DNA of 64,000 bases from an uncultured delta proteobacterium (GTDB lineage Bacteria; Desulfobacterota; Desulfobacteria; Desulfobacterales; UBA2156), in assembly GCA_963736855.1 (NCBI GenBank), contig CAVTQK010000020.1:32001-96000 (forward strand). The letters run 5' to 3'. This document shows positions 41,957 to 53,374 of the stretch, piece after piece (the stretch's first letter is position 1; each line of letters opens with the position of its first letter). The translations under genes were made by a program, and so were the position numbers. Below the pieces are notes generated by a model. The model saw nothing but the letters and a program-made list of their open reading frames with translations, searched no databases and had not been told where the DNA came from.

Positions 41957-42013
41957 TTACCGTTACCTCGCTTTCAGCCCCTTCCCGGTTCCCGATAAGG
42001 GATACCTTTCGGT

Positions 42014-42559
42014 TTAATGATAATTTTCTGGCTCAGTCTTATCTTGGGTAATTTCATGAACCAATCCCGCTCGCTTAAACGCCCTGAATGTCCGCTCCCG
42101 TATGTCGTCGGTCTTGAGCTGGTAAATCTTTTCCCGGCATTGCATATAATTATTGAAAGCGATCAGGCCGAATACGTCAATCCTCTCCTCAAGCTTTGCA
42201 AACGCATCTTGTAAAGCCGGGCTCTGAAGGGTGTCTCCTAAATCCTGTCTTAGAATTTTTTTAAAATCAAACATGAAACCGATCGCCTGGGAGGGCACAA
42301 AATTCTGAACGGCACGGATGCGGATCATGGGGTCCAGGCATGTGCCGATCTGAAGGGGATCGTTTTCTCCCGCATCCATGAGCCGATCAAAAAGCTCGTC
42401 TAACCCCTTCCTGAAGGTGTTGCCGACCGGGTTCGTGAAGGGATCACTACTGCCTGCGAAAAATCTGGAGCCATCGGCCGAATAGGTCTCGATGACGGAA
42501 TGAAACCATTTTTGAACCAGGTCTTTTTTTCGTTTCCGGAGCAACCGATCCAATTCCAT
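42014..42559 (-). CDS. dsrT: DsrT (RsbRD N-terminal-like domain protein)
   Basis: DPFTNPVG, IRIRAVQNFVPSQA, YMQCREKIY; directly upstream of dsrM as in other sulfate reducers. Confidence 0.85.
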   Translation of the reverse strand: MELDRLLRKRKKDLVQKWFHSVIETYSADGSRFFAGSSDPFTNPVGNTFRKGLDELFDRLMDAGENDPLQIGTCLDPMIRIRAVQNFVPSQAIGFMFDFKKILRQDLGDTLQSPALQDAFAKLEERIDVFGLIAFNNYMQCREKIYQLKTDDIRERTFRAFKRAGLVHEITQDKTEPENYH

Positions 42560-42661
42560 GATCAGGTGTGACCTTCGAAATTTTGCGCGCTCATTTGGCC
42601 CAACTCAGGAAAGAGCATCTTTTTTCACTTCTTCTTTCCGATAAAAAGAGGTGTAAGGTGC

Positions 42662-42692
42662 TGTCTATAGACAACACGTCTTATCGTGTCAA
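42662..42692 (-). promoter_or_regulatory. Sigma70 promoter for dsrT-MKJOP with a palindrome over the -10
   Basis: Minus strand TTGACA-17 bp-TATAGA; perfect palindrome TGTCTATAGACA at 42662-42673. Confidence 0.6.
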
Positions 42693-42949
42693 GAAAAAAT
42701 GGAGATCGAAAGGGGTTTTCAAAGGTGGCTAAAAAAGATCCCAACATCAAGACATCTTATGATAATTGGCATTACAAGAAGGTAGTTGCAGCTAACTTCT
42801 GACAAGGCGGGTCACCTTTCGGACGGATCGATTCCAGGCGCAGACTCTTAAAGGATAAACGGCCCCTGGAAACCATGGCGTTATAGGGGAATGCCGACTC
42901 TACGATATCCCGCAATCGGCGTAGGATCCGTATCCGAAAAAAACATCAT

Positions 42950-45289
42950 TTAATCCGCGTATGCACCGTGGCGATTTTGATCCAGAACAGAGCGGATTTG
43001 CTGTAGTATGTCCTTGAGTTGGAACGGTTTGCCGATGAAGCCGGCTGCCCCGGCGTTGAGGATGGCTCTCAGCCGGTCATTTAAGGCAAATCCGCTGGCG
43101 ATGAGAACTCTTACACGGGGATTGATTTTGAGCAGTTCCCGAAGACACCGACCGCCGTCGATCCCGGGCATATTATAGTCCAGGATGACCAAATCGATTA
43201 GATTTTTATGGGTTTTATACAATTCAATGGCCTCTTCCCCGCCAACAGCCTTGAGAACTTTATATCCATACTGCCTTAGGACTTCGTTGCCGATATCCAG
43301 AATAATAGGTTCATCATCCACCAGAAGAATGGTTTCCGATCCGCGAAAAACCAGTTCGGATTCCCGGATCTCTTCAACAACGTCCGGTTGTGCAGGAGAT
43401 TCGGGAACCGGGAAATATATTTTAAATTGGGTGCCCTGGTTCACCCGGCTGTAACAGCTGATATGAGCCCCGTGGTTCTTCACAATGCCATAAACCATGG
43501 CAAGTCCCAAACCCGTTCCTTTGCCTTTTGCTTTGGTGGTAAAAAAGGGTTCGAAAATATGTTCCTGCACCTCTTTCGGCATGCCGCACCCTGTGTCCGA
43601 GACGGAGAGAAGCACATATCTGCCTGGCCTCATTTCCGGAAGGTGCCATGGGGTGCCTGTTTCCACCACGAAGTTCTGGGTGGAAAAAACCAGCTTCCCA
43701 CTATCCGGCATGGCATCTCCGGCGTTGATACTGAGGTTGATGAGGATCTGCTCTATCTGGATCGAATCGGCATGAATCCGGTGAATATTATCGTTTAGAT
43801 AGAGTTCAATTTTTATCGTTTTCGACAGGGTTCGCTCCAGAAGCCGGGCCGTGTTCCTGATTTCATGATTGAGGTCCACAGGGCCCAGCGTGCTCTCCAC
43901 TTTCCTGCTGAAAATCATGAGATGCCGGATGAGGCTACCGGCGCGACTGACTGAACGTTCGATACTTTCCAGGTATTTTCGGCTGGTGTCGTCTTGGTTG
44001 TTTTTCATTAAAAGCAGCTGGGTATATCCGGAGATCCCTTGAAGTGCATTGTTGAAATCGTGGGCGATCCCGCCCGCCAGTGTCCCGATAGCCTCCATTT
44101 TTTGAGAATGGCGGAGCTGTTCTTCCAGCTTCTTCCTCTCTTCCTCGGCCCTTACACGTTCGGTTATATTCCGAACCACACCGCGAAAGCCCACCGGCTT
44201 TCCCTCTTCGTTTTTCATCAATGATGCGGACAGTTCCAAGACAGCCTTTTCCCCGTTGATCCGGATGACCTCATAATTCTCCAAGCGGGCCGGCTGTTGG
44301 GTTTGGCAGATAGTATTGAAAAGCTGATTGATTTTCCGGCTTGTTTCAGGGGTTGTGTATTGCTTGCTGTTCATCCCAAGGAGGTCGTCTCGACCGTATC
44401 CGGTGATCCGACACAGGGATTCATTCGTAAAAGTCAGGTTCCCTGCAAGATCCACCTCAAAATAGCCTTCTTCGATGCTGTTCAAAATGGCTCGATATCT
44501 TTCCTCGCGTTTGCTCAGCGCCTGAAGCGTCATTTCGTTTTCGATGGTTTTTTTCTTAAGTTCGACACAGGTATCATCGAGAAGACGCCTCTCCTGTTGA
44601 ATATATGCCTGGTAATCCTTGACTATGGATTTGAGCTGAGCCGTTTCCATGGCCTGCCCGATTCGACTGGCCAGAATGGACACCATGTTCACGTCATGGC
44701 ACGTGAAAGGGTTGTCGTTTTCTTTTTTTGCTAAATTTAAAACTCCCACAACGGCTTTTTTGTCAAAAATGGGAATGATCGCAAAAGAAGGGGATCCGTA
44801 TCTTGGATTATTGGCTTTCTTAATACGAGGATCGGTTTCGATGTTCTTCACCACCAGCGGCTTTTTGTCGGATATTACACGCTGAATGATGGATTGTTCC
44901 AAATCGATATAAAAAGGGGTTTTGGATTCTGTTTGAAAACCATGATATGCCACTACCTGGAGGCGATTTTCCTTCTTTCCGGCAAGGCACAATGATCCGA
45001 TTTGTGCGCCGGTGAGTTTTATGGCTTTTTCTAAAACAAAATCAACCAGTTGCTGAATAGTCAAATTTTTGTTGAGGGTTTCGAGAAATGCGTTGATTTC
45101 GTTTATTTCGAAAACCTTCCGGTCCAGCTCGGCTGCTAATTTTTTGAGCTTTTCCTGAATTTGCTTTTCGGAAAGGGCCATGTCCCTGATTTTGGCATCT
45201 TTTTCTTCCTCCCCCATCCATTGCTTTTCCATGGACTCCCGGGTTCGGATTTGGGAGGCGGAGGAGACGAAATTATCTTTGTTTTCCAA
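42950..45289 (-). CDS. Soluble hybrid histidine kinase (coiled coil-GAF-PAS-HisKA-HATPase-REC)
   Basis: [12 protein letters not shown]-box, GTGLGL, C-terminal REC (LLVDDE, LDYNMP); no TM; TTG start after AGGAGGAG. Confidence 0.9.
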
Positions 45290-45381
45290 AAGGCCTATCT
45301 CCTCCTTTTACCAGAGGCGAAAGCGGTCCCGCAATTATGTCGCAGATGCGGGGAGACGCTTCAGGCAATATGTGATTAACG

Positions 45382-45396
45382 GCAAATCTCATGCCA
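45382..45396 (-). promoter_or_regulatory. Sigma54 -24/-12 promoter of the hybrid kinase
   Basis: Minus strand TGGCATG-AGAT-TTGC, about 90 bp upstream of the start. Confidence 0.75.
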
Positions 45397-45467
45397 TGCA
45401 TAATCCATTGAAATTCAATCCAATAATGCTAACTCCAGCCATCATGTGCCCCAATGTGGTAAAAAGA

Positions 45468-45485
45468 TGCCTGATTTTTTGTGCA
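45468..45485 (-). promoter_or_regulatory. Putative enhancer (bEBP binding site)
   Basis: Minus strand TGCACAAAAAATCAGGCA, nearly identical to the site at 47085-47102. Confidence 0.6.
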
Positions 45486-45533
45486 TGGAAAAAGGGCACT
45501 CAATAAGAATGAAGGCAATTTGGAAAGTAATGC

Positions 45534-46889
45534 TCATTGTGATTGCTCTTTGGCATGGGTCTTGGCCAGCAGCGTGTTGCGATGAATGCCGAGTTTTTCG
45601 GCTGCCTTGGTTTTATTTCCCCCCACGTCTTCCAGGACTTCGGCAATGTAATGCTTTTCAAAGGCATTGATGGCGTCTTTGAGCGGAAGATCCTTGATCC
45701 CTGTTTTTAGGGAACCTGTAAGGGGTGGCAAAGCCTTGGCATGAATTAACGGATCTTTGGTGATGGTCACCAGGCGCTCCACCAAGTTCTGAAGTTCTCT
45801 GACGTTCCCGGGCCAGTCATAATTCATCAGGGTTTTAACCGCTTCTCCGGAAAATCGTATTTTTGCTTTTCCGGTTTGTTTGGCATAAAGATCGACGAAA
45901 TGCTCCAGCAGCAGGGGAATGTCCGATTTCCGATCTCTCAAGGGGGGGATCTTAACAGGGAATACATTGATCCGATAAAACAGGTCGTCGCGAAACTCAC
46001 CGTTTTCGACCAACTCCGCAAGGTTTTTATTGGAGGCTGCGATGAACCGCACGTCCACCTTAATCACCTTGTTACTCCCCAGGCGTTCAAACTCCCGCTC
46101 CTGGATGATCCTGAGAAGTTTGGCCTGCATCTTCAGGTCAAGGGAGTCGATATCGTCTAAAAATGCGGTTCCTTTGTTGGCCATCTCGAGCTTTCCGATG
46201 CGTGTGGAGAGCGCGCCGGTAAATGCTCCTTTATTGTATCCGAAGACCTCGCTCTCCATGAGAGTAAGGGGAATGGCAGCACAATTGACGACTACAAAGG
46301 GATCTCCTTTCCGGTGGCTTCGATTGTGCAACGCCCTGGCAACCAGTTCCTTTCCGGTTCCGCTTTCCCCCTGAATCAAGACCGTGCCGTCGCTTTGGGA
46401 GATCGTAGAAATAAAGTCGAATACCTTTTTCATTTTTGGGTCTTCGCCCACCATCATCTCAAAGGGACGGACCCGTTCAAGTTCGGTTTTCAGGTAAGCG
46501 ATCTCCTGGGTCATGGAGCGTTTTTCCAGGGCTCTCTGAATGACGGCCAAGATATCGTCCACGGTGAACGGCTTCATGATGTATTCATAAGCACCCAGCT
46601 TGATGGCCTTGACGGCAATGGGAACTTCCTTCACCGCGGTGACCATGATCATCTCGACGGTCGGATCGATCTCTTTGAATTTCTCTAAAAGATCGAGTCC
46701 TCCCATATCCGGCAGCAGGATATCGAGAAGGACCAGGTCAACAGCGTGAGATTTGAAACAATCCAAGGCTTCGGATCCTGAAGAGGCAATGAGGATATGG
46801 TAATCCTCTTTTAAAATCATGTTGAAGGATTGGCGAATGCCGGCTTCGTCATCGACCACCAGGATCGTTGCTTTTTTCGTTAAATTCAT
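45534..46889 (-). CDS. Sigma54-dependent response regulator (NtrC family; REC-AAA+-Fis HTH)
   Basis: GESGTGKE, intact GAFTGA, WPGNVRELQN, NKTKAAEKLGIHRNTL. Confidence 0.93.
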   Translation of the reverse strand: MNLTKKATILVVDDEAGIRQSFNMILKEDYHILIASSGSEALDCFKSHAVDLVLLDILLPDMGGLDLLEKFKEIDPTVEMIMVTAVKEVPIAVKAIKLGAYEYIMKPFTVDDILAVIQRALEKRSMTQEIAYLKTELERVRPFEMMVGEDPKMKKVFDFISTISQSDGTVLIQGESGTGKELVARALHNRSHRKGDPFVVVNCAAIPLTLMESEVFGYNKGAFTGALSTRIGKLEMANKGTAFLDDIDSLDLKMQAKLLRIIQEREFERLGSNKVIKVDVRFIAASNKNLAELVENGEFRDDLFYRINVFPVKIPPLRDRKSDIPLLLEHFVDLYAKQTGKAKIRFSGEAVKTLMNYDWPGNVRELQNLVERLVTITKDPLIHAKALPPLTGSLKTGIKDLPLKDAINAFEKHYIAEVLEDVGGNKTKAAEKLGIHRNTLLAKTHAKEQSQ

Positions 46890-47062
46890 GAGACTCCTGA
46901 ACTTACAGGCGAACCGGCCTGGAAAAGAATCTGAGGTCCGTGGATGAATTTTTGTATATCATAATTTTCAGAAAATGTTATCCTTTTTTTATTATTTCCA
47001 TATCATGTCGTTACAGGCCAAGTGCTTTTTCAGAATCCTTTCAAACCAAATAAACCCACAAA

Positions 47063-47102
47063 TGCACAGATTTCTGGGCAACATTGCACAAAAATCAGGG
47101 CG
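47063..47102 (+). promoter_or_regulatory. Tandem putative enhancer sites
   Basis: TGCACAGATTTCTGGGCA (near-palindrome) and TGCACAAAAATCAGGGCG, 22 bp apart, about 160-200 bp upstream of a sigma54-like promoter. Confidence 0.6.
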
Positions 47103-47263
47103 GCTTTCTGTCTCTATAAAATCCTTTTGAACGCTTTTTCTTTATGCTATGTTATTAAAGTCTTTCCTCGCTTCTAACTGCTTGCTGGGCAGGGTTTTTT
47201 TAAATCACAGGGAAACGAAACTTTTTTTTTAAAGATAAAAAAAAGATCTGTTTTTTGAAAAGA

Positions 47264-47278
47264 TGGCACGAATATTGA
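47264..47278 (+). promoter_or_regulatory. Sigma54-like promoter of the acyltransferase operon
   Basis: TGGCACG-AATA-TTGA (perfect -24, -12 with C>A), preceded by A/T tracts. Confidence 0.6.
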
Positions 47279-47340
47279 GAAGCTATTTTTGATTATCAAA
47301 ATTTTTTAGTCAATATTGGACAGGCGATAACAAAAACGTC

Positions 47341-48312
47341 ATGCAGCTCAGTACATTCCTGCAATCCAAAACCAATCTTTTTATATGCCGAACACTGGGA
47401 TGGCGCTTCAGCTACGGTTATATTGCCTTTTTAGGTAAACTTTACTTTTTTTTCAGACGAAAAGAAAGAAAAACCATCAAACATGCGATTCGCGCAGTCT
47501 TTTTAGGTCAAAAGAGCAAAGCCGAGATCCGGAAAACCACCCGGGCAGTCTTTCGTGGCATCATCTCCCATTATTTTGAAAAGTTGTTTAATGCGTACTC
47601 ATCTGCGGAATTGTTAAGGGCCTTTTTAGAAAGCCACATCCAATGTGACAACATCAAAATCATGAAGGAATCGCTTTCTGAGGGAAAAGGCGCGCTTTTG
47701 ATCACCGGGCATTTCGGGGGCGTGGAATTTATCCCCGGCTACCTCGGTGTCAACCAGATCCCCGTTTCCATAATCGCCAAATTCAAGACCGACCACCTTC
47801 GGCAGACGCTGTTCGATAAGTGCTCCGCCTTTTCCACCCGCATCATCGATCCCAACCTGACTCCCAATGTGATCAAGGAAATCTGTTCGAACTTAAAGGA
47901 AAACCGAATCGTCGTCACTCAGTGTGACGAGATCGAAGAGTGGCGCCCCTCAAAGCAAGATAATATCTTTTTTCTTGGAAAGCTCGTTTGGCTGGATAAG
48001 ACCATGAATATATTGACAAAGCGGACTCAAGCCGCCATCTTGTTCGGACTGATGCACCGATCCAAGAACAGCGGATATGAATTCATCGTCACCTCCATAG
48101 ATGAGATGGCAAAACAGCTCAAACAGCACGCCGAAGCATCGTTAGGAGAAATTCTTTTAAAAGGCCTGGAAAGTTTTATTTATCAGTATCCGGAAGACTG
48201 GTACGAGTGGAAAAAATACTTCCGCTTGGAAACCATTCCTTCCGAACAGACTCCTCAAGAACCTCTCGTGCCGGAACCGCTGTATGGTGCCACCGTGCTG
48301 AAGCCGACATGA
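47341..48312 (+). CDS. LpxL/HtrB-like (lysophospholipid acyltransferase superfamily) acyltransferase
   Basis: GKGALLITGHFGGVE (H-x4-E), LKENRIVVTQCD, IYQYPEDWYEW. Confidence 0.8.
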   Translation: MQLSTFLQSKTNLFICRTLGWRFSYGYIAFLGKLYFFFRRKERKTIKHAIRAVFLGQKSKAEIRKTTRAVFRGIISHYFEKLFNAYSSAELLRAFLESHIQCDNIKIMKESLSEGKGALLITGHFGGVEFIPGYLGVNQIPVSIIAKFKTDHLRQTLFDKCSAFSTRIIDPNLTPNVIKEICSNLKENRIVVTQCDEIEEWRPSKQDNIFFLGKLVWLDKTMNILTKRTQAAILFGLMHRSKNSGYEFIVTSIDEMAKQLKQHAEASLGEILLKGLESFIYQYPEDWYEWKKYFRLETIPSEQTPQEPLVPEPLYGATVLKPT

Positions 48313-48366
48313 AAAACGATCCTTTCACCACACCCCTGATAATCACCTTCAGTCGAACCCGTTGAT

Positions 48367-50376
48367 ATGGAAAAAGAGGTCAATTGCACCAACTCGGGCG
48401 TTGTCGTCAGTTACATTAAAACACACGCCAAAAATCGTCTTCCGGAACTTCTTGAGGACCTGCACCCGGAAATTGACACCCTTCCCGATCCTGAAGCATT
48501 TCTCAGCGATCCCAACAATTGGATATCAAGCGACATTATTATAAAACTTTACGAGCGGCTAAAATAATACTTAATGATGACTTGGCGCCCTTCTATATCG
48601 CCAAATTTGCTATTGAAAAAACAAATCTCGGATTTAAAGGCATTATTGTTAAGATCTTCAGTTCGTTTGACATGGCTTTAAAAAATGCCCAGCGAATCAA
48701 TGCCAAATGGAATAGAACAAAAGTGGTGGATTTGGTTAAAAAAGATCAATTCTTCGGCGATTATTCGACTGCATTGGCATCCTGAAACTTCGGTTAATAA
48801 AGATGTTTGCCTGTATAATAAAGGGATTTACACTTTCATGCCTACCCTCTGGGGACAGGGACCTCTTCAACTGACAGAGGATGCATGCTACTTTGAAGGA
48901 GCTCCATATTGTGAATACAACCTGCAATGGGCGGAGCGGAAAAAGCTTCTTAGTTTCGTAGGAGATTTCTTTCGATCCAAGTCCGTCCTCTTGGAAACCA
49001 TTAAGGAAATCGAAAAAGACAAAGATATTATCGAACAGAAATACGAAGAAGTCAATCGTCTCAATATCGTATTGAACCGCAAGATCAAACAGCTCACCGC
49101 CATCCAGGAGACCGGGAAGGCCATCTTTCCATACTGGATTTGGAGCAACTGCTCACGGTGATCATGAATCTTTTAGCCACCGTTTGCCGGATTCGGCGGG
49201 CCACCATCATGCTGATCAACGAGGAAGAGAAGTGCCTCGAATATATCTATGGCACGGGATTCGGCGAAGAAGTTCCTGATGAAATAAAAAATTATCGAGT
49301 CCCCATGAACCGGCTCAGCAACATCCTGGCACGAGTGGCCAGTACCGGACAGTCCGAATATATCCCGGAAGTCAAGGGCTCCAGCCTCCGGAAGGGAAAC
49401 GTTCTTTTAGCGCGGGCGAACCCGACTTCGGTATATGTAGTGCCGCTGATTACCCGATCCAAGGTGATCGGGATCATCGCCACCGATGCTGTGGAAGATC
49501 ACGGGATCCCCGAAGAAACCCGTCAGACCCTGGATGTATTTACGCCGCAGATTGCCATCGCCATTCAAAACGCGCGGTTATATCAGAACCTTCAACAGCG
49601 GATGAAGGAGCTGAACCAATCCCGGGCCCTTTTGAGTCGGACGGAAAAACTCTCTTTTTTAGGAAACGTGGCGGCAAGACTTGCCCACGAAATCAAGAAT
49701 CCCCTCACCGCCATCGGTACTTTTATCCAGATGCTCCCGAAAAAGTTCGACGATTCCGAATTTCGAAACGAATTTTATCATATTGCCCTGGAGGAAACCA
49801 ACCGCGTAAACAACCTGATCACCGAATTGCTGGATCTCACAAAGACTAAGGAATCCCATTTCGAGTTGGAAAGCCTTCACTTGCTCATCGAAAAAATGGT
49901 GATGCTGGTCACTCCCCAGAGCAAAGGGAAAAGGCATCGACTTTTTCATATCTTTGGACCCGTCGATTGAAAAAATTTGGATGGATGCCGAAAAAATGAA
50001 GCAGGTCATCCTGAACCTGCTTTCCAATGCCATTGAATTTACTCCGGAAAAGGGGAAAATCAATATTGAGACCCGGCGACGTCAGTTAAAAGGGAAACCG
50101 GAGGCGATCCAGATTAAAATCCGGGATACCGGCATCGGTATCCCCAAATCGAACATGGACCTGATCTTCGACCCCTATTTTACCACCAAACATAAGAGCT
50201 CCATGCACAATGGTACCGGCCTGGGCCTTTTTATCGCGCACCAGAACATGCAGGACCACAGCGGCAACATCGAAGTGGAAAGCATCATCAACAAAGGGAC
50301 TACGTTCACGCTGACCCTTCCCGCGATAACCGAAGAACAATCCACTTTTTCCAAAACCTATGAAAAGGACATCTGA
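48367..50376 (+). pseudogene. Soluble sensor histidine kinase (V4R/H-NOX-like N-terminus, coiled coil, GAF, HisKA, HATPase) broken by four 1-bp indels (pseudogene or assembly error)
   Basis: Five overlapping ORF fragments join in order; E..CYFEGAPYCEY V4R-like motif, LAHEIKNPL, NLLSNA, GTGLGL; shifts near 48557, 48740, 49125 and 49930. Confidence 0.75.
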
Positions 50377-50385
50377 AAGTTCTCG

Positions 50386-51528
50386 ATGCACGTCGAAAAA
50401 GTAAATATTTATCAGATCGCACTTCCCTTTGCGAGTCATTTCCCACATGCATTGAACAAAGGCGGGCATGCTCAAAACGTCGTCTGTGAAATCATCGCGA
50501 AAGGTGGAACGATTCGAGGTTATGGGGAAGGCGCTCCGAGGACCTATGTTACCGGGGAAACACCAAATAGCACGATGCGGGACATCGCCCGGTTTGTCAA
50601 ACTCGAAAAATTTCCCAGGGAAATGAAACAAATTTCCCAAGTTTGGGATTTTATCGACAGTCTTCCCAAGGATAAAGGTCATAACGCTGCTGTATGCGCT
50701 TTAGAATGCGCTTTGTTGGATGCTTTCGGAAAAAAAGAAGGCCGATACCTAACAATATACTTTTCGGGTGCTTTCGCCACAGAGACGGTCCACTACGGTA
50801 CGACTATTCCCCTTTTGGATACAAAGGCTATCGAACTATTATGCCGTCAGATTAAAGAGTATAAAATCAAAAAAGTGAGGCTCAAAGTTGGGAATAATTT
50901 TTTTCAAAACCAAGCTAATTTCGAATCTATACAAAATATTTTTTGCGATAGCTACGATTTGAAAATCGACGCAAATGGTTCCTGGAGCAGATCAGATGCC
51001 TTCGATCACATCCCATTGATTGAGAAATACCACGTCAAGGTAGTCGAACAACCCATGAGCCCAAAAGATCCCGCGCTCATCGATTTTTCAAGACAAATGA
51101 ATCGTTCAAAAATCTTTGTAATGGCCGATGAATCAGTCTGTTCCTTCGAAGATATCCAGATAAGTATTGATCAGGGATTTACTATGGTCAATATTCGGTT
51201 GTCCAAGTGTGGAGGATTCAGAAGATCACTTCAGATGATTGAATTTGCCAGGAAGAAAAACCTTCGATTCCAAATCGGATGTCACCTCGGGGAGTCCGGA
51301 ATCCTTTCCGCCGCGGGACGAGTCTTGGCGTTATTATGCAAAGATGCCATCTATTATGACGGATCCTATGATGCCTATCTGCTTAAACAAAATATCACTA
51401 CCCATCCTGTTTCATTCGGATTGGGCGGAAAGGCGGAAGCGCTTCAAGGATCCGGGCTAGGGGTAGAAGTGGATCTTCAAAGTCTCAGAAGTCTCTGCGA
51501 TGCCTTTATTATTGTTAATGCCCTCTAA
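50386..51528 (+). CDS. Enolase-superfamily (MLE/dipeptide epimerase subgroup-like) enzyme
   Basis: GYGEGAPR..VTGET, metal ligands DAN/EQP/DES, RLKVG, NIRLSKCGG. Confidence 0.85.
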   Translation: MHVEKVNIYQIALPFASHFPHALNKGGHAQNVVCEIIAKGGTIRGYGEGAPRTYVTGETPNSTMRDIARFVKLEKFPREMKQISQVWDFIDSLPKDKGHNAAVCALECALLDAFGKKEGRYLTIYFSGAFATETVHYGTTIPLLDTKAIELLCRQIKEYKIKKVRLKVGNNFFQNQANFESIQNIFCDSYDLKIDANGSWSRSDAFDHIPLIEKYHVKVVEQPMSPKDPALIDFSRQMNRSKIFVMADESVCSFEDIQISIDQGFTMVNIRLSKCGGFRRSLQMIEFARKKNLRFQIGCHLGESGILSAAGRVLALLCKDAIYYDGSYDAYLLKQNITTHPVSFGLGGKAEALQGSGLGVEVDLQSLRSLCDAFIIVNAL

Positions 51529-51658
51529 ACCACTCGAACTAAGCTGTACGCTGGAATTCTAACTTCAATTTACTTCTCTTGAAACTCGACAGGGTTTCAT
51601 ATATGTGAACTTGAGCCTAAAGGCAGCAAAAATTTAATCGCTTTGGAGAAAACTGAGC

Positions 51659-52462
51659 ATGAGCGTAATTTATGAGGAATGGAGCAGAGAGTATCGGGAA
51701 ACGCTAAAGATTTTACCTGGGAAAAAAGTATACGTTTTATATTCTGGAGGAAAAGATTCCTCGTTGTGTTTGGATATGATGTTGGAAGCCTCGTCCGAAT
51801 TTGGATTTTCAATTGAAGCCCACGGAGGGGCTTTCCCGCTCCATCGCTATTTAGAAGACGAAAAGTCCCGCTTAGCAATCTATTGGAAAGATAGAGGGGT
51901 TAACGTGCAATGGCATGATGTGGATAGTATGGGCTCGGATTTGGAGTCTGCGCAAAATCCATGTTTAGTTTGCCAGAAATTGAGAAAGAAATTGATGCAT
52001 CATCTGCTCATGTCGTGGGAACATGACTGGACCCGGGTCGTTCTTGTCGCTAGCTATACGCTTTGGGATCTCGTTGGATATGCTGTGGAGCATCTTTTAT
52101 CCAATCTTTTTTCTTCGCCGAAGCCCCTTGATGAGGGTCAACAGCGATTCATCGAGACCGGACAGCGGTTTTACCCTCTTCTTTATATGAAGGAAGGATA
52201 TATGGTTTTCAGGCCTTTGCTCCAGTATAATACACCTGAAATAGTCGAATATCTTCAGGAACGATCTATCCCCATCCTTTCGGTGCCCTGTAAATATAAA
52301 GATTTCAGGCCCAAAAGAATTCTTGAAAATTATTATAATAAATTGGGTTTAATGTTTGAATATAATCTTGTCATGGATTTTGCGAGAAAGTCTCTTGGTC
52401 TTCCGGAACCACTTCGATACACGTCCGCCGATAAGGATGAATATCTGAAAAAGCTATTTTAA
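51659..52462 (+). CDS. Divergent TtcA-like PP-loop ATP pyrophosphatase
   Basis: LYSGGKDS PP-loop, NPCLVCQKLRKK, VFRPLL, PCKY. Confidence 0.7.
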   Translation: MSVIYEEWSREYRETLKILPGKKVYVLYSGGKDSSLCLDMMLEASSEFGFSIEAHGGAFPLHRYLEDEKSRLAIYWKDRGVNVQWHDVDSMGSDLESAQNPCLVCQKLRKKLMHHLLMSWEHDWTRVVLVASYTLWDLVGYAVEHLLSNLFSSPKPLDEGQQRFIETGQRFYPLLYMKEGYMVFRPLLQYNTPEIVEYLQERSIPILSVPCKYKDFRPKRILENYYNKLGLMFEYNLVMDFARKSLGLPEPLRYTSADKDEYLKKLF

Positions 52463-52488
52463 TTTTTTGAATATCTCGAATTTTAACC

Positions 52489-52806
52489 TCAAGATGCCAA
52501 AGCCCCGCAGAAGGGGCAGTATCTGAATCCGGGTTCAAGACCTTTACCGCACATTTTACAACGACGCAGCACCCGGTTTGTCTCCGACCGATAGTCGGAT
52601 TTCATTTCGGAAACGGTCTTTTCACATGGTTCACAAAGAAGGAAGGGTTCGCCGGTCTTGATTCGTAGAAGGGGAATGAAAAAAAGGCTCAGGTAGTGAT
52701 CCACCCGACGGTAGTATGCCCTGGCAAGCCCGCAAACCGGGCAAAGCTGGGCTTTTGGATCCAATACTTTGGTTTTCGGTGAAATCCCGGCTAATAAAAA
52801 CATCAT
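52489..52806 (-). CDS. Zinc-ribbon domain protein
   Basis: CPVC, LFFIPL, CEPC, CKMC, CPFC. Confidence 0.75.
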   Translation of the reverse strand: MMFLLAGISPKTKVLDPKAQLCPVCGLARAYYRRVDHYLSLFFIPLLRIKTGEPFLLCEPCEKTVSEMKSDYRSETNRVLRRCKMCGKGLEPGFRYCPFCGALAS

Positions 52807-52819
52807 CAGGCCTTAGGAC

Positions 52820-53374
52820 TTAAAAATCCCTGGGCTTGCAGACGATCTCCCGGATCCTCATGCTGAACAGATCCGATTGGTTGACCGGCTTAAGGATCAG
52901 GGCTGTGTCGGCCCCCCTCCCGGTCCCTCCGATGGAAACGATATCCGCGCCGGTGAGTTTACCTGCATCCGCCGCCATGATGGATACCTCCACAGCGACC
53001 TTGGTCCCTTGACCGAAGAGCCGCAGGGTGTCGGCAACAATCAGGATCGGGTAAATGCCGCTGTGTTTTTTAGCCAGAGACCGCTCCAGGCCGGACAGGG
53101 CATGGGTGGCCTGGACGACCTGGACACCCTGCTTTTCCAGATCTGACCGGACTCCCGGATCCATCACGCTCTTAAAAGGGGTCTTGAACCCGCAGTGATA
53201 GGTGACGGCTGTAACTCGGAACCCCTTGAAGACTTTTACGGCCTTGAGCGCCGTATCTCCTTTGCTTGAGGCCACGACCACCTCATTCAACCCCAGCGCT
53301 TTTCCCCGTTCAAAGGCACAGTGCAGAACCTTTTCCGTATTTTCCGGACCCGGTTTGTCGAAACAGATACACAT
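52820..53374 (-). CDS. Pyruvate kinase C-terminal (alpha/beta)-like domain protein
   Basis: FDKPGPENT, VVASSKGDTA, HALSGLER, GQGTKVAVE, MAADAG, GADTA, REIVCKP. Confidence 0.8.
   Translation of the reverse strand: MCICFDKPGPENTEKVLHCAFERGKALGLNEVVVASSKGDTALKAVKVFKGFRVTAVTYHCGFKTPFKSVMDPGVRSDLEKQGVQVVQATHALSGLERSLAKKHSGIYPILIVADTLRLFGQGTKVAVEVSIMAADAGKLTGADIVSIGGTGRGADTALILKPVNQSDLFSMRIREIVCKPRDF

Follow-up and report, generated by a model that had tools for sequence, protein, structure and literature searches.

The window analysed here, 64,000 nucleotides of contig CAVTQK010000020.1 from an uncultured delta proteobacterium, contains a block of six genes in which the initial annotation saw a signal-synthesis and sensing circuit. 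All six genes were found where it had placed them, with domains assigned by Pfam and NCBIfam; no Rfam match was obtained within positions 42000-53000. The features are as follows:

42950-45289, minus strand: soluble hybrid histidine kinase (GAF-PAS-HisKA-HATPase-REC by Pfam/NCBIfam)
45382-45396, minus strand: sigma-54 -24/-12 promoter of the hybrid kinase, conserved in 7/7 aligned sequences
45468-45485, no strand assigned: predicted activator site before the hybrid kinase, degenerate TGCACA-N6-TGTGCA (PWM score 15.4)
45534-46889, minus strand: NtrC-type sigma-54 activator (REC-sigma54 AAA+-HTH by Pfam/NCBIfam, GAFTGA intact)
47063-47080 and 47085-47102, no strand assigned: predicted tandem activator sites, 22 bp apart (PWM scores 23.4 and 16.3)
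47264-47278, plus strand: sigma-54 promoter of the operon, conserved in alignments of 7 family-level relatives
47341-48312, plus strand: LpxL/LpxM-family acyltransferase, predicted signal synthase (PF03279 Lip_A_acyltrans, E 4.5e-15)
48364 or 48367 to 50376, plus strand: sensor histidine kinase of the operon (H-NOX/V4R at residues 1 to ~195, coiled coil, GAF, HisKA, HATPase)
50386-51528, plus strand: enolase-superfamily enzyme, MLE subgroup (MR_MLE_C, E 4.7e-29)
51659-52462, plus strand: TtcA-like PP-loop ATPase (SGGKDS), optional, predicted tailoring enzyme (weak match, E 2.6e-4)

Conservation of the block was assessed in 57 loci whose sensor is a close homologue. In 43 of them the acyltransferase and enolase genes are both found no more than 4 kb from the sensor; three loci have only the acyltransferase, two only the enolase and nine neither, three of these nine being near contig ends. 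Since the loci were chosen from best hits and are mutually related, such counts are not independent. At least five gene orders occur. Among 401 genomes of the phylum, 42 of the 43 with an acyltransferase orthologue also have a close sensor (E<=1e-40), and 42 of the 50 with a close sensor also have the acyltransferase. The genes therefore co-locate and co-occur across Desulfobacterota, and the concern that homologues might not be neighbours elsewhere was not borne out. The block is real and conserved across many uncultured relatives of sulfate reducers, and its core consists of the acyltransferase, the enolase and the sensor domain. The activator is present in 26/57 loci, other lineages having hybrid kinases and LuxR-type regulators instead; a B12 radical SAM gene occurs in 13/57 and the PP-loop gene in 12/57. 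The PP-loop gene and the hybrid kinase are accessory. Full-length orthologues of the latter are confined to loci of the same family, with a decayed copy in locus L022, and this kinase is probably a lineage-specific target of the activator, not a core component. Of the earlier interpretation, the co-location, the V4R-like assignment, both sigma-54 promoters and the motif common to them stand, but the inclusion of the hybrid kinase and the PP-loop gene in the core does not. Among 30 loci with distant sensors this acyltransferase was found in only one, and many sensor-domain proteins are orphans.

The AT-richness noted for the right half of the block is real by GC content (0.43 for the enolase and 0.42 for the PP-loop gene, as compared with 0.51-0.58 for dsrK/M/O/P and the suc genes and 0.515 for the genome), but certain relatives (L015, L067) have little or no such contrast, so that it is a poor guide to origin. 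Recent horizontal acquisition was rejected in view of this weak contrast and of the same synteny across the genus, family and order. The adjacency to dsr genes, suspected earlier to be incidental, is inherited synteny: dsrT is in view in 16/57 loci, and none of the dsr genes is in view among 40 loci from other classes. The dsrT gene has its own sigma-70-type promoter, and a pair of motif and sigma-54 promoter was found before it in none of 17 loci. Control of dsr by the activator was also rejected; the perfect sites that 4 loci have upstream of dsrT, at a distance of 420-490 bp, are not accompanied by a good sigma-54 site.

In this assembly the operon kinase is not one ORF, with frame changes near 48557, 48750, 49124 and 49926-49953. 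These four frameshifts are private to the assembly, the relatives encoding one protein of 658-674 aa, and they are likely assembly errors. Long-standing pseudogene status is unsupported by the counts of nonsynonymous and synonymous changes (18/30 derived in the window versus 14/40 in a relative; 6/11 versus 7/12 against near-identical populations, from 38 of the differences listed).

The input domain of this kinase has the H-NOX/V4R fold. The highest structural similarity was found with H-NOX (Z 15.8 at an rmsd of 2.9 A for 174 residues; Foldseek E 5e-6); VirS (Z 12.8), DmpR (Z 8.2) and Bet3 (Z 8.1) are also similar. Searching PDB sequences with the sensor alignment yielded nothing above noise, ESM Atlas matches were all <0.9 and serve as leads only, and PF02830 is weak in the sensor family (8/21 members at E<=0.1). 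A zinc site of the form C-x23-E-x2-C-x7-C is conserved (C148 in 127/129, E171 in 118/121, C174 in 119/121 and C182 in 111/112 sequences), and its spacing is that of the MopR ligands C155/E178/C181/C189 given in the available part of the MopR report (10.1101/2023.07.11.548514). Fold and zinc site thus agree with the V4R-like kinase claimed previously. The V4R domains of MopR, DmpR, PoxR and XylR share with the sensor the fold and these zinc ligands, but the sensor domain has the full size of H-NOX, with an additional N-terminal helix bearing Cys7, and is carried by a histidine kinase and not by an activator. Cys7 is present in 121/124 aligned representatives, including all FeeM fusions described below. 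The heme sensors of the H-NOX type (Shewanella, Nostoc) and the ligand-binding domain of VirS have the closest folds at 6-13% identity. A YxSxR strand and a proximal His are the heme-binding signature of H-NOX; neither is conserved here, with no alignment column above 50% His and the strand at 131-137 having the consensus x-A-V-V-R-L-H. The sensor domain is, by these residues, probably heme-free.

The acyltransferase exceeds the gathering score of PF03279 (56 versus 22.3 bits) and keeps the HX4D/E dyad H124/E129 in 45/45 sequences, in agreement with the LpxL-like assignment; the nearest solved structure is 5kn7 (E 9e-12). It falls below the NCBIfam cut-offs of the LpxL/LpxP equivalog lipid A late acyltransferases (22.7 versus 297.8 for TIGR02207, 51.5 versus 248 for PRK08419). 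A second LpxL-family gene, 23% identical, is located on contig C15 among genes of LPS-core type, which suggests that the cassette enzyme is not the housekeeping late acyltransferase. Complex prediction of the acyltransferase with the sensor domain gave a score of 0.01, which counts neither for nor against contact between them.

The enolase was confirmed as a member of the MLE subgroup by its strand-2 Lys (K167, 43/45) and three acidic metal ligands (D195 in 44/45, E221 in 45/45, D248 in 40/45). Its best solved relative is 3jva (E 2e-24), which belongs with the dipeptide epimerases and NSAR/OSBS; these share the strand-2 Lys and the metal ligands, whereas the cassette enzyme has Arg271 in place of the strand-6 Lys in 40/45 sequences, and the three sequences with Lys there have lost D248. 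The strand-6 Lys is needed as the second base for racemisation, according to the available part of PMC12006748, so that its replacement argues against a dipeptide epimerase or N-acylamino acid racemase. Longer, fused enolase homologues were not found among 3953 candidates, which is weak evidence. The PP-loop enzyme has SGGKDS and conserves C102/C105/C211 in 12 sequences, comparable with C122/C125/C222 of TtcA (PMC4081106); the TtcA-like description is appropriate in these features, but the protein is below the NCBIfam cut-off for TtcA (20.6 versus 272 bits).

The activator has the architecture of the NtrC type, REC-AAA+(GAFTGA)-HTH, with palindromic sites upstream of a -24/-12 promoter. Its Walker B motif reads DD and not DE (D246 in 27/27 aligned); PspF carrying the substitution E108D has reduced ATPase but remains able to activate on duplex DNA, as the available text of PMC4132715 indicates. 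The sigma-54 promoters proposed for the operon and the hybrid kinase are both kept in alignments of 7 relatives; that of the operon has GA instead of GC at -12, a variant common to most relatives. The 18-bp motif is real and precedes both transcription units, although the copies in this window are degenerate forms of the palindrome TGCACA-N6-TGTGCA, in tandem before the operon. The tandem copies rank 2 and 6 in the genome by PWM, and the site before the hybrid kinase, a near-perfect palindrome in relatives, ranks tenth. When up to two mismatches are allowed, 25 of the 26 intergenic regions between activator and operon in relatives contain the motif, as compared with 14 of 520 shuffles; a 17-bp NtrC-type spacing was rejected, fitting 1/26 loci, and 18 bp fits.

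Perfect sites number one in this genome and up to 25 in others. At least four occur in 19 of 35 genomes of the class with a close sensor versus 5 of 266 others, and outside the cassette a sigma-54 promoter lies within 300 bp of 32 of 48 sites versus 34 of 2400 shuffles. The motif thus marks a predicted sigma-54 regulon. Recurrent targets are PilZ proteins (4 genomes), REC-cyclases (3), pilW-type pilins (2) and comEA-type proteins (2); a small RNA common to targets without an ORF was considered, but L149, L153, L210 and L280 resemble one another only in part. Five genomes without a close sensor are also rich in sites, and two of these encode a paralogue of the activator whose recognition helix is identical, so that some targets may belong to the paralogue.

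The sensor domain was additionally found with other enzymes. Five of the best 150 representatives have it fused behind a FeeM/LuxI-like domain, with Cys7 directly after the acyltransferase domain; at both metagenome loci of the fusion a B12 radical SAM gene is directly downstream, and one of them has a second FeeM-like gene. A sister sensor clade, placed by a quick tree, adjoins a methyltransferase and a PilZ protein whose C-terminal half was modelled as a tandem GNAT. This half has no match in Pfam, the GNAT assignment coming from fold search alone, and profile comparison detected no similarity to the FeeM fusion. Three unrelated predicted acyltransferases thus pair with one sensor family. 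The PilZ-GNAT enzyme, which is located outside this window, resembles in architecture PixB of Myxococcus xanthus (PilZ-PilZ-GNAT); the available part of the source (PMC8316039) makes no mention of V4R.

With a probability of roughly 0.5, we propose that the cassette makes and senses an acylated small molecule in a self-inducing acyl-signal circuit. The acyltransferase and the enolase-fold enzyme would build the molecule, presumably by moving an acyl group from acyl-ACP or acyl-CoA onto a small acceptor and by a one-base elimination or cyclisation; optional methylation by the B12 radical SAM enzyme, or sulfur insertion or adenylation by the PP-loop enzyme, would diversify it. The heme-free H-NOX/V4R domain of the soluble kinase would bind the signal near Cys7, and the kinase in turn would transfer phosphate to the adjacent activator, its probable partner. 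The predicted palindromic sites upstream of the operon would provide positive feedback, and those upstream of other sigma-54 promoters would extend a quorum-like output to c-di-GMP/cAMP effectors, pili and DNA uptake. The observations in favour are gene linkage, fold, catalytic motifs, promoter and motif conservation and the sigma-54 sites behind the motif genome-wide. As in autoinducer circuits, synthase-like and receptor-like genes are linked, with a predicted activator site before the synthase operon. Against the proposal speak the near-absence of this acyltransferase from loci with distant sensors, the many orphan sensors, the limited occurrence of the activator, the site-rich genomes that have no close sensor, and the single perfect site and frameshifted kinase of this genome.

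The sensor might instead detect an outside or metabolic hydrophobic compound, such as a fatty acid taken up through FadL, the enzymes modifying a membrane lipid as an output and not as a ligand. LpxL-family enzymes normally acylate membrane lipids, PF03279 enzymes acting on lipid A-type acceptors, and B12 radical SAM enzymes methylate lipids. FadL adjoins the cassette in L113 and L114, the latter also having a FabF-type ketoacyl synthase and a 3-hydroxyacyl-CoA dehydrogenase (3HCDH), neighbours that suit lipid remodelling equally well; in the available part of PMC2253512, the V4R domains of XylR, DmpR and MopR sense substrates and not self-made signals. However, acyltransferases of three unrelated folds accompany the sensor, one of them fused to it directly, the sensor gene is inside the operon that it would induce, and the regulon abounds in genes for signalling, pili and DNA uptake, not in lipid genes. 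We consider such regulated remodelling rather unlikely.

Direct protein acylation, in which the acyltransferase or an acyl-thioester acylates Cys7 and the kinase reads the acyl-ACP/acyl-CoA state with no diffusible signal, appears improbable. The near-invariance of Cys7 suits it, and Bet3 carries a cysteine-linked fatty acid; but the PilZ-GNAT sister clade has no Cys7, and the enolase, radical SAM and PP-loop partners suggest small-molecule chemistry. It is very improbable that the domain senses heme, gas or thiol redox state in connection with sulfite respiration (dsrT-MKJOP) and that the enzymes are outputs unrelated to it: the best structural matches are H-NOX proteins and dsrT is a neighbour in some loci, but the heme-binding residues and the dsr data given above oppose it.

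The acyl-signal circuit has counterparts among autoinducer systems read by kinases, namely, LuxM/LuxN and CqsA/CqsS of Vibrio, which feed LuxO-sigma54, RpfF/RpfC of Xanthomonas and PhcB/PhcS of Ralstonia. In these, too, the gene of an acyl-handling synthase adjoins a sensor kinase; output through a sigma-54 activator is shared with LuxO, and the regulon is of lifestyle type. The candidate synthase here differs in combining an LpxL fold with an enolase. The putative receptor is a soluble H-NOX/V4R domain and not a membrane or PAS/Cache sensor, and the predicted activator site is directly before the enzyme operon. More tentatively, the heme-free H-NOX/V4R domain may represent an unrecognised class of cytoplasmic autoinducer receptor, paired, depending on the lineage, with LpxL-type, FeeM/LuxI-type or tandem-GNAT synthases and governing a sigma-54 quorum-sensing regulon of Desulfobacterota (pili, DNA uptake, c-di-GMP/cAMP effectors). 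The signal chemistry, from an acyltransferase of the lipid A type together with a one-base enolase, would be new, possibly with capture by Cys7, and the tailoring enzymes would be interchangeable.

To our knowledge, very little has been learned of how the sulfate reducers and syntrophs of sediments signal between cells. Even if the enzymes remodel lipids, the motif would define a new sigma-54 regulon, in which a genome can have as many as 25 perfect sites. If the circuit exists, its synthase set, receptor, activator, DNA site and regulon would all be defined and open to tests in E. coli; the LpxL-fold/enolase pair would acquire its first small-molecule role and the unassigned Arg-type MLE-subgroup family a function, and acyl signals would prove to be read by the H-NOX fold in the absence of heme.

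The six genes of the cassette lie where the initial annotation had placed them, and their domains were borne out by the Pfam and NCBIfam analyses. The closest named relative is a Desulfobacterales MAG, with 90% identity over part of the kinase.

42014–42559, minus strand: DsrT (RsbRD_N protein, by domain match), head of dsrMKJOP
42950–45289, minus strand: hybrid kinase
45534–46889, minus strand: NtrC-type sigma-54 activator
47341–48312, plus strand: LpxL-family acyltransferase
48364–50376, plus strand: sensor kinase with H-NOX/V4R domain
50386–51528, plus strand: enolase
51659–52462, plus strand: PP-loop protein

The block is more AT-rich than its flanks (GC 0.43 in the enolase gene and 0.42 in the PP-loop gene, genome 0.515). 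This gap stands as a feature of the window but not as a mark of recent arrival, because the relatives show a small or absent contrast between block and flanks and the same synteny with dsrT-MKJOP, which is kept at the genus, family and order levels. Genes for a zinc-ribbon protein and a pyruvate-kinase-C-domain protein (52489–53374, minus strand) are transcribed towards the operon, to which they have no relation; this flank is conserved in the source's family.

The 87 loci in which conservation was assessed (close sensor in 57, distant sensor in 30) were drawn from the best sensor matches and so do not form a random or independent sample. The acyltransferase and enolase genes both lie within 4 kb of the close sensor in 43 of the 57 loci; the rest contain the acyltransferase only (3), the enolase only (2) or neither (9). 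This acyltransferase was found at one of the 30 distant-sensor loci. Among 401 phylum genomes, the acyltransferase orthologue is present in 43, the close sensor (E ≤ 1e-40) in 50 and both in 42, so that the co-occurrence of acyltransferase and sensor, part of the check proposed earlier, was found at both levels. Gene order varies: acyltransferase–sensor–enolase, acyltransferase–B12 radical SAM–sensor–enolase–PP-loop, acyltransferase–enolase–sensor, sensor–acyltransferase–enolase, and the sensor divergent from acyltransferase–enolase. Other genes are optional at the 57 loci: the activator is present in 26, dsrT is in view in 16, a B12 radical SAM gene is present in 13 and the PP-loop gene in 12. 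Full-length hybrid kinase orthologues occur only within the source genome's family; in other lineages the sensor domain is carried by hybrid kinases, and LuxR-type regulators are nearby in two loci. One locus (L068, G308:C6) has an orphan close sensor among ketoacyl-synthase-like, glycosyltransferase, B12 radical SAM and second LpxL-like genes.

In addition, the sensor domain is paired with other acyltransferases.

Proteins P0254, P0231, P0236, P0243 and P0256; loci L164:4578–13201 and L165: FeeM/LuxI-like domain, sensor and kinase fusions
L015:16410–19001, L066:10638–13504 and L128–L132: cassettes of PilZ-PilZ-tandem-GNAT protein, methyltransferase and sister sensor

A FeeM-like domain lies directly N-terminal to the sensor domain in 5 of the best 150 representatives (FeeM profile above cut-off in 3 of the 5; LuxI/OlsB matches weak). 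Both metagenome loci found for this fusion have a B12 radical SAM gene directly downstream, followed by a short-chain dehydrogenase gene; a further FeeM-like gene is present in one of them. A sister sensor clade without Cys7 adjoins a PilZ protein (9 loci), mostly together with a SAM methyltransferase. According to the structure model, the C-terminal half of this PilZ protein is a tandem GNAT, an architecture resembling that of PixB (PMC8316039). In L015 and L066 the sister cassette and the acyltransferase–enolase cassette adjoin. Judging by profiles and models, three acyltransferase folds (LpxL-type, FeeM-like and tandem GNAT) appear to share one sensor family. That the sensor recurs together with both an acyltransferase and a methylating enzyme is the main argument that it reads an acylated product.

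The acyltransferase keeps H124/E129 in 45/45 aligned sequences and scores far under the lipid A equivalog cut-offs; a second family member is located among LPS-type genes in the source genome. K167 and the metal-binding residues are conserved in the enolase, and Arg271 occupies the strand-6 lysine position in 40/45. This lysine is the second base in racemases/epimerases but no more than a cation-pi partner in the one-base OSBS reaction (PMC12006748; 10.1101/2022.03.03.481873). Since the arginine replaces the second base, elimination or cyclisation is more likely than epimerisation. The third metal ligand is lost in five homologues, two of them from loci also without the acyltransferase. Three cysteines are kept in the PP-loop protein, resembling the cluster ligands of TtcA (PMC4081106).

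The cassette is best read as a self-inducing acyl-signal circuit (probability about 0.5), with product and feedback putative: the acyltransferase/enolase product would be sensed by the kinase, which would re-induce the operon via the activator. This logic is like that of LuxM/N- or CqsA/S-LuxO. A regulated remodelling of lipids, triggered by an external ligand, is less likely but is the strongest alternative.

The sensor domain model (pLDDT 87) best matches H-NOX (Z 15.8), followed by VirS (12.8), DmpR/PoxR (8.2) and Bet3 (8.1). C148, E171, C174 and C182 are near-invariant in the family, with the zinc-ligand spacing of the MopR V4R domain (10.1101/2023.07.11.548514). Cys7 is present in 121/124 aligned sequences; its direct acylation, by which the sensor itself would be the substrate, is improbable, and the sister clade lacks this residue. 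A heme/redox sensor for sulfite respiration, suggested by the H-NOX fold and dsr synteny, is very improbable: no sensor-alignment column is more than half His, making canonical heme binding unlikely, the promoter of dsrT itself, near 42692, is conserved and of sigma-70 type, and no dsr genes are in view in 40 loci from other classes. Peak 19-residue hydropathy of the kinase (1.71, at the GAF domain start) is consistent with a soluble protein. The domain family (702 representatives at E ≤ 0.001) is carried by kinases, HD, GGDEF and cyclase proteins. P0174 is an ABC transporter (membrane and ATPase parts) with two sensor-domain copies at its C-terminus.

The activator's Walker B is DD in 27/27 aligned sequences; the equivalent PspF variant, E108D, still activates (PMC4132715). 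The predicted activator site, TGCACA-N6-TGTGCA, usually in duplicate 21–23 bp apart, precedes the operon in 25/26 activator loci (14/520 shuffles) and in 1/22 acyltransferase loci without an activator in view. A conserved -24/-12 site follows it in most activator loci, and the activator gene's own promoter is sigma-54-type in three. In a survey of 301 class genomes, at least 4 perfect sites (maximum 25) occur in 19/35 with a close sensor and 5/266 others. Of these five, two have an activator orthologue, and another two encode a paralogue whose recognition helix is identical; the fifth gave no activator match at the threshold used. The paralogous activators of L242 and L243, from palindrome-rich genomes, are 46–47% identical to the activator and share its IHRNTL helix but have a canonical Walker B; they may share the regulon. 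A sigma-54 promoter lies within 300 bp of 32/48 examined non-cassette sites (34/2400 shuffles; 64/2000 random positions). Genes that recur downstream of the sites encode PilZ proteins (G232, G124, G227, G220 and G308, with Pfam scores reaching the cut-off in four of these genomes), REC-cyclases (3 genomes), pilW-type pilins (2), comEA-type proteins (2), and single receivers, further kinases or HD-GYP proteins; many targets are one-offs. In the source genome the operon sites rank 2 and 6 and the hybrid-kinase site 10. The top-ranked tandem site (G000:C21:766418–766455) precedes a sigma-54 promoter whose sole downstream ORF encodes a hydrophobic product of ~45 aa; the target is possibly a small protein or sRNA. 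In L156, L149, L153, L210, L279 and L280, the motif and a sigma-54 promoter precede an integrase and several mobile-/defence-type genes, some of these promoter regions being mutually similar, as if a portable promoter module.

Four single-base changes of frame interrupt the sensor kinase gene (near 48557, 48750, 49124 and 49926–49953); the four adjoining genes have none relative to the closest relative. Public-run contigs (~96–99% identity) have an intact frame at all four places. Frame changes in 5/86 other tested orthologues indicate that the assembly is error-prone, although four in 2 kb greatly exceed that rate. No excess of amino-acid changes was found on the window's branch of the kinase. 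Cassettes decay in relatives: in L022 the activator is lost and the hybrid kinase fragmented, and the L091 kinase is split. Assembly error is the probable explanation; recent inactivation is less probable. In the hybrid kinase gene, the relatives' ATG start is apparently altered (45289–45301, minus strand), and the first in-frame start is a nearby TTG.

Full-text searches of a literature with few subscription journals turned up no account of this cassette, its motif or its receptor; the motif could already be tabulated in a regulon survey (e.g., RegPrecise-type). This analysis adds as new the palindrome with its regulon, the fusion to a FeeM-like domain, the Lys-to-Arg change in the enolase, the variant Walker B and the sequencing-read evidence that bears on the frameshifts. 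The cassette is real and appears to be an undescribed variant of synthase–kinase–activator signalling.
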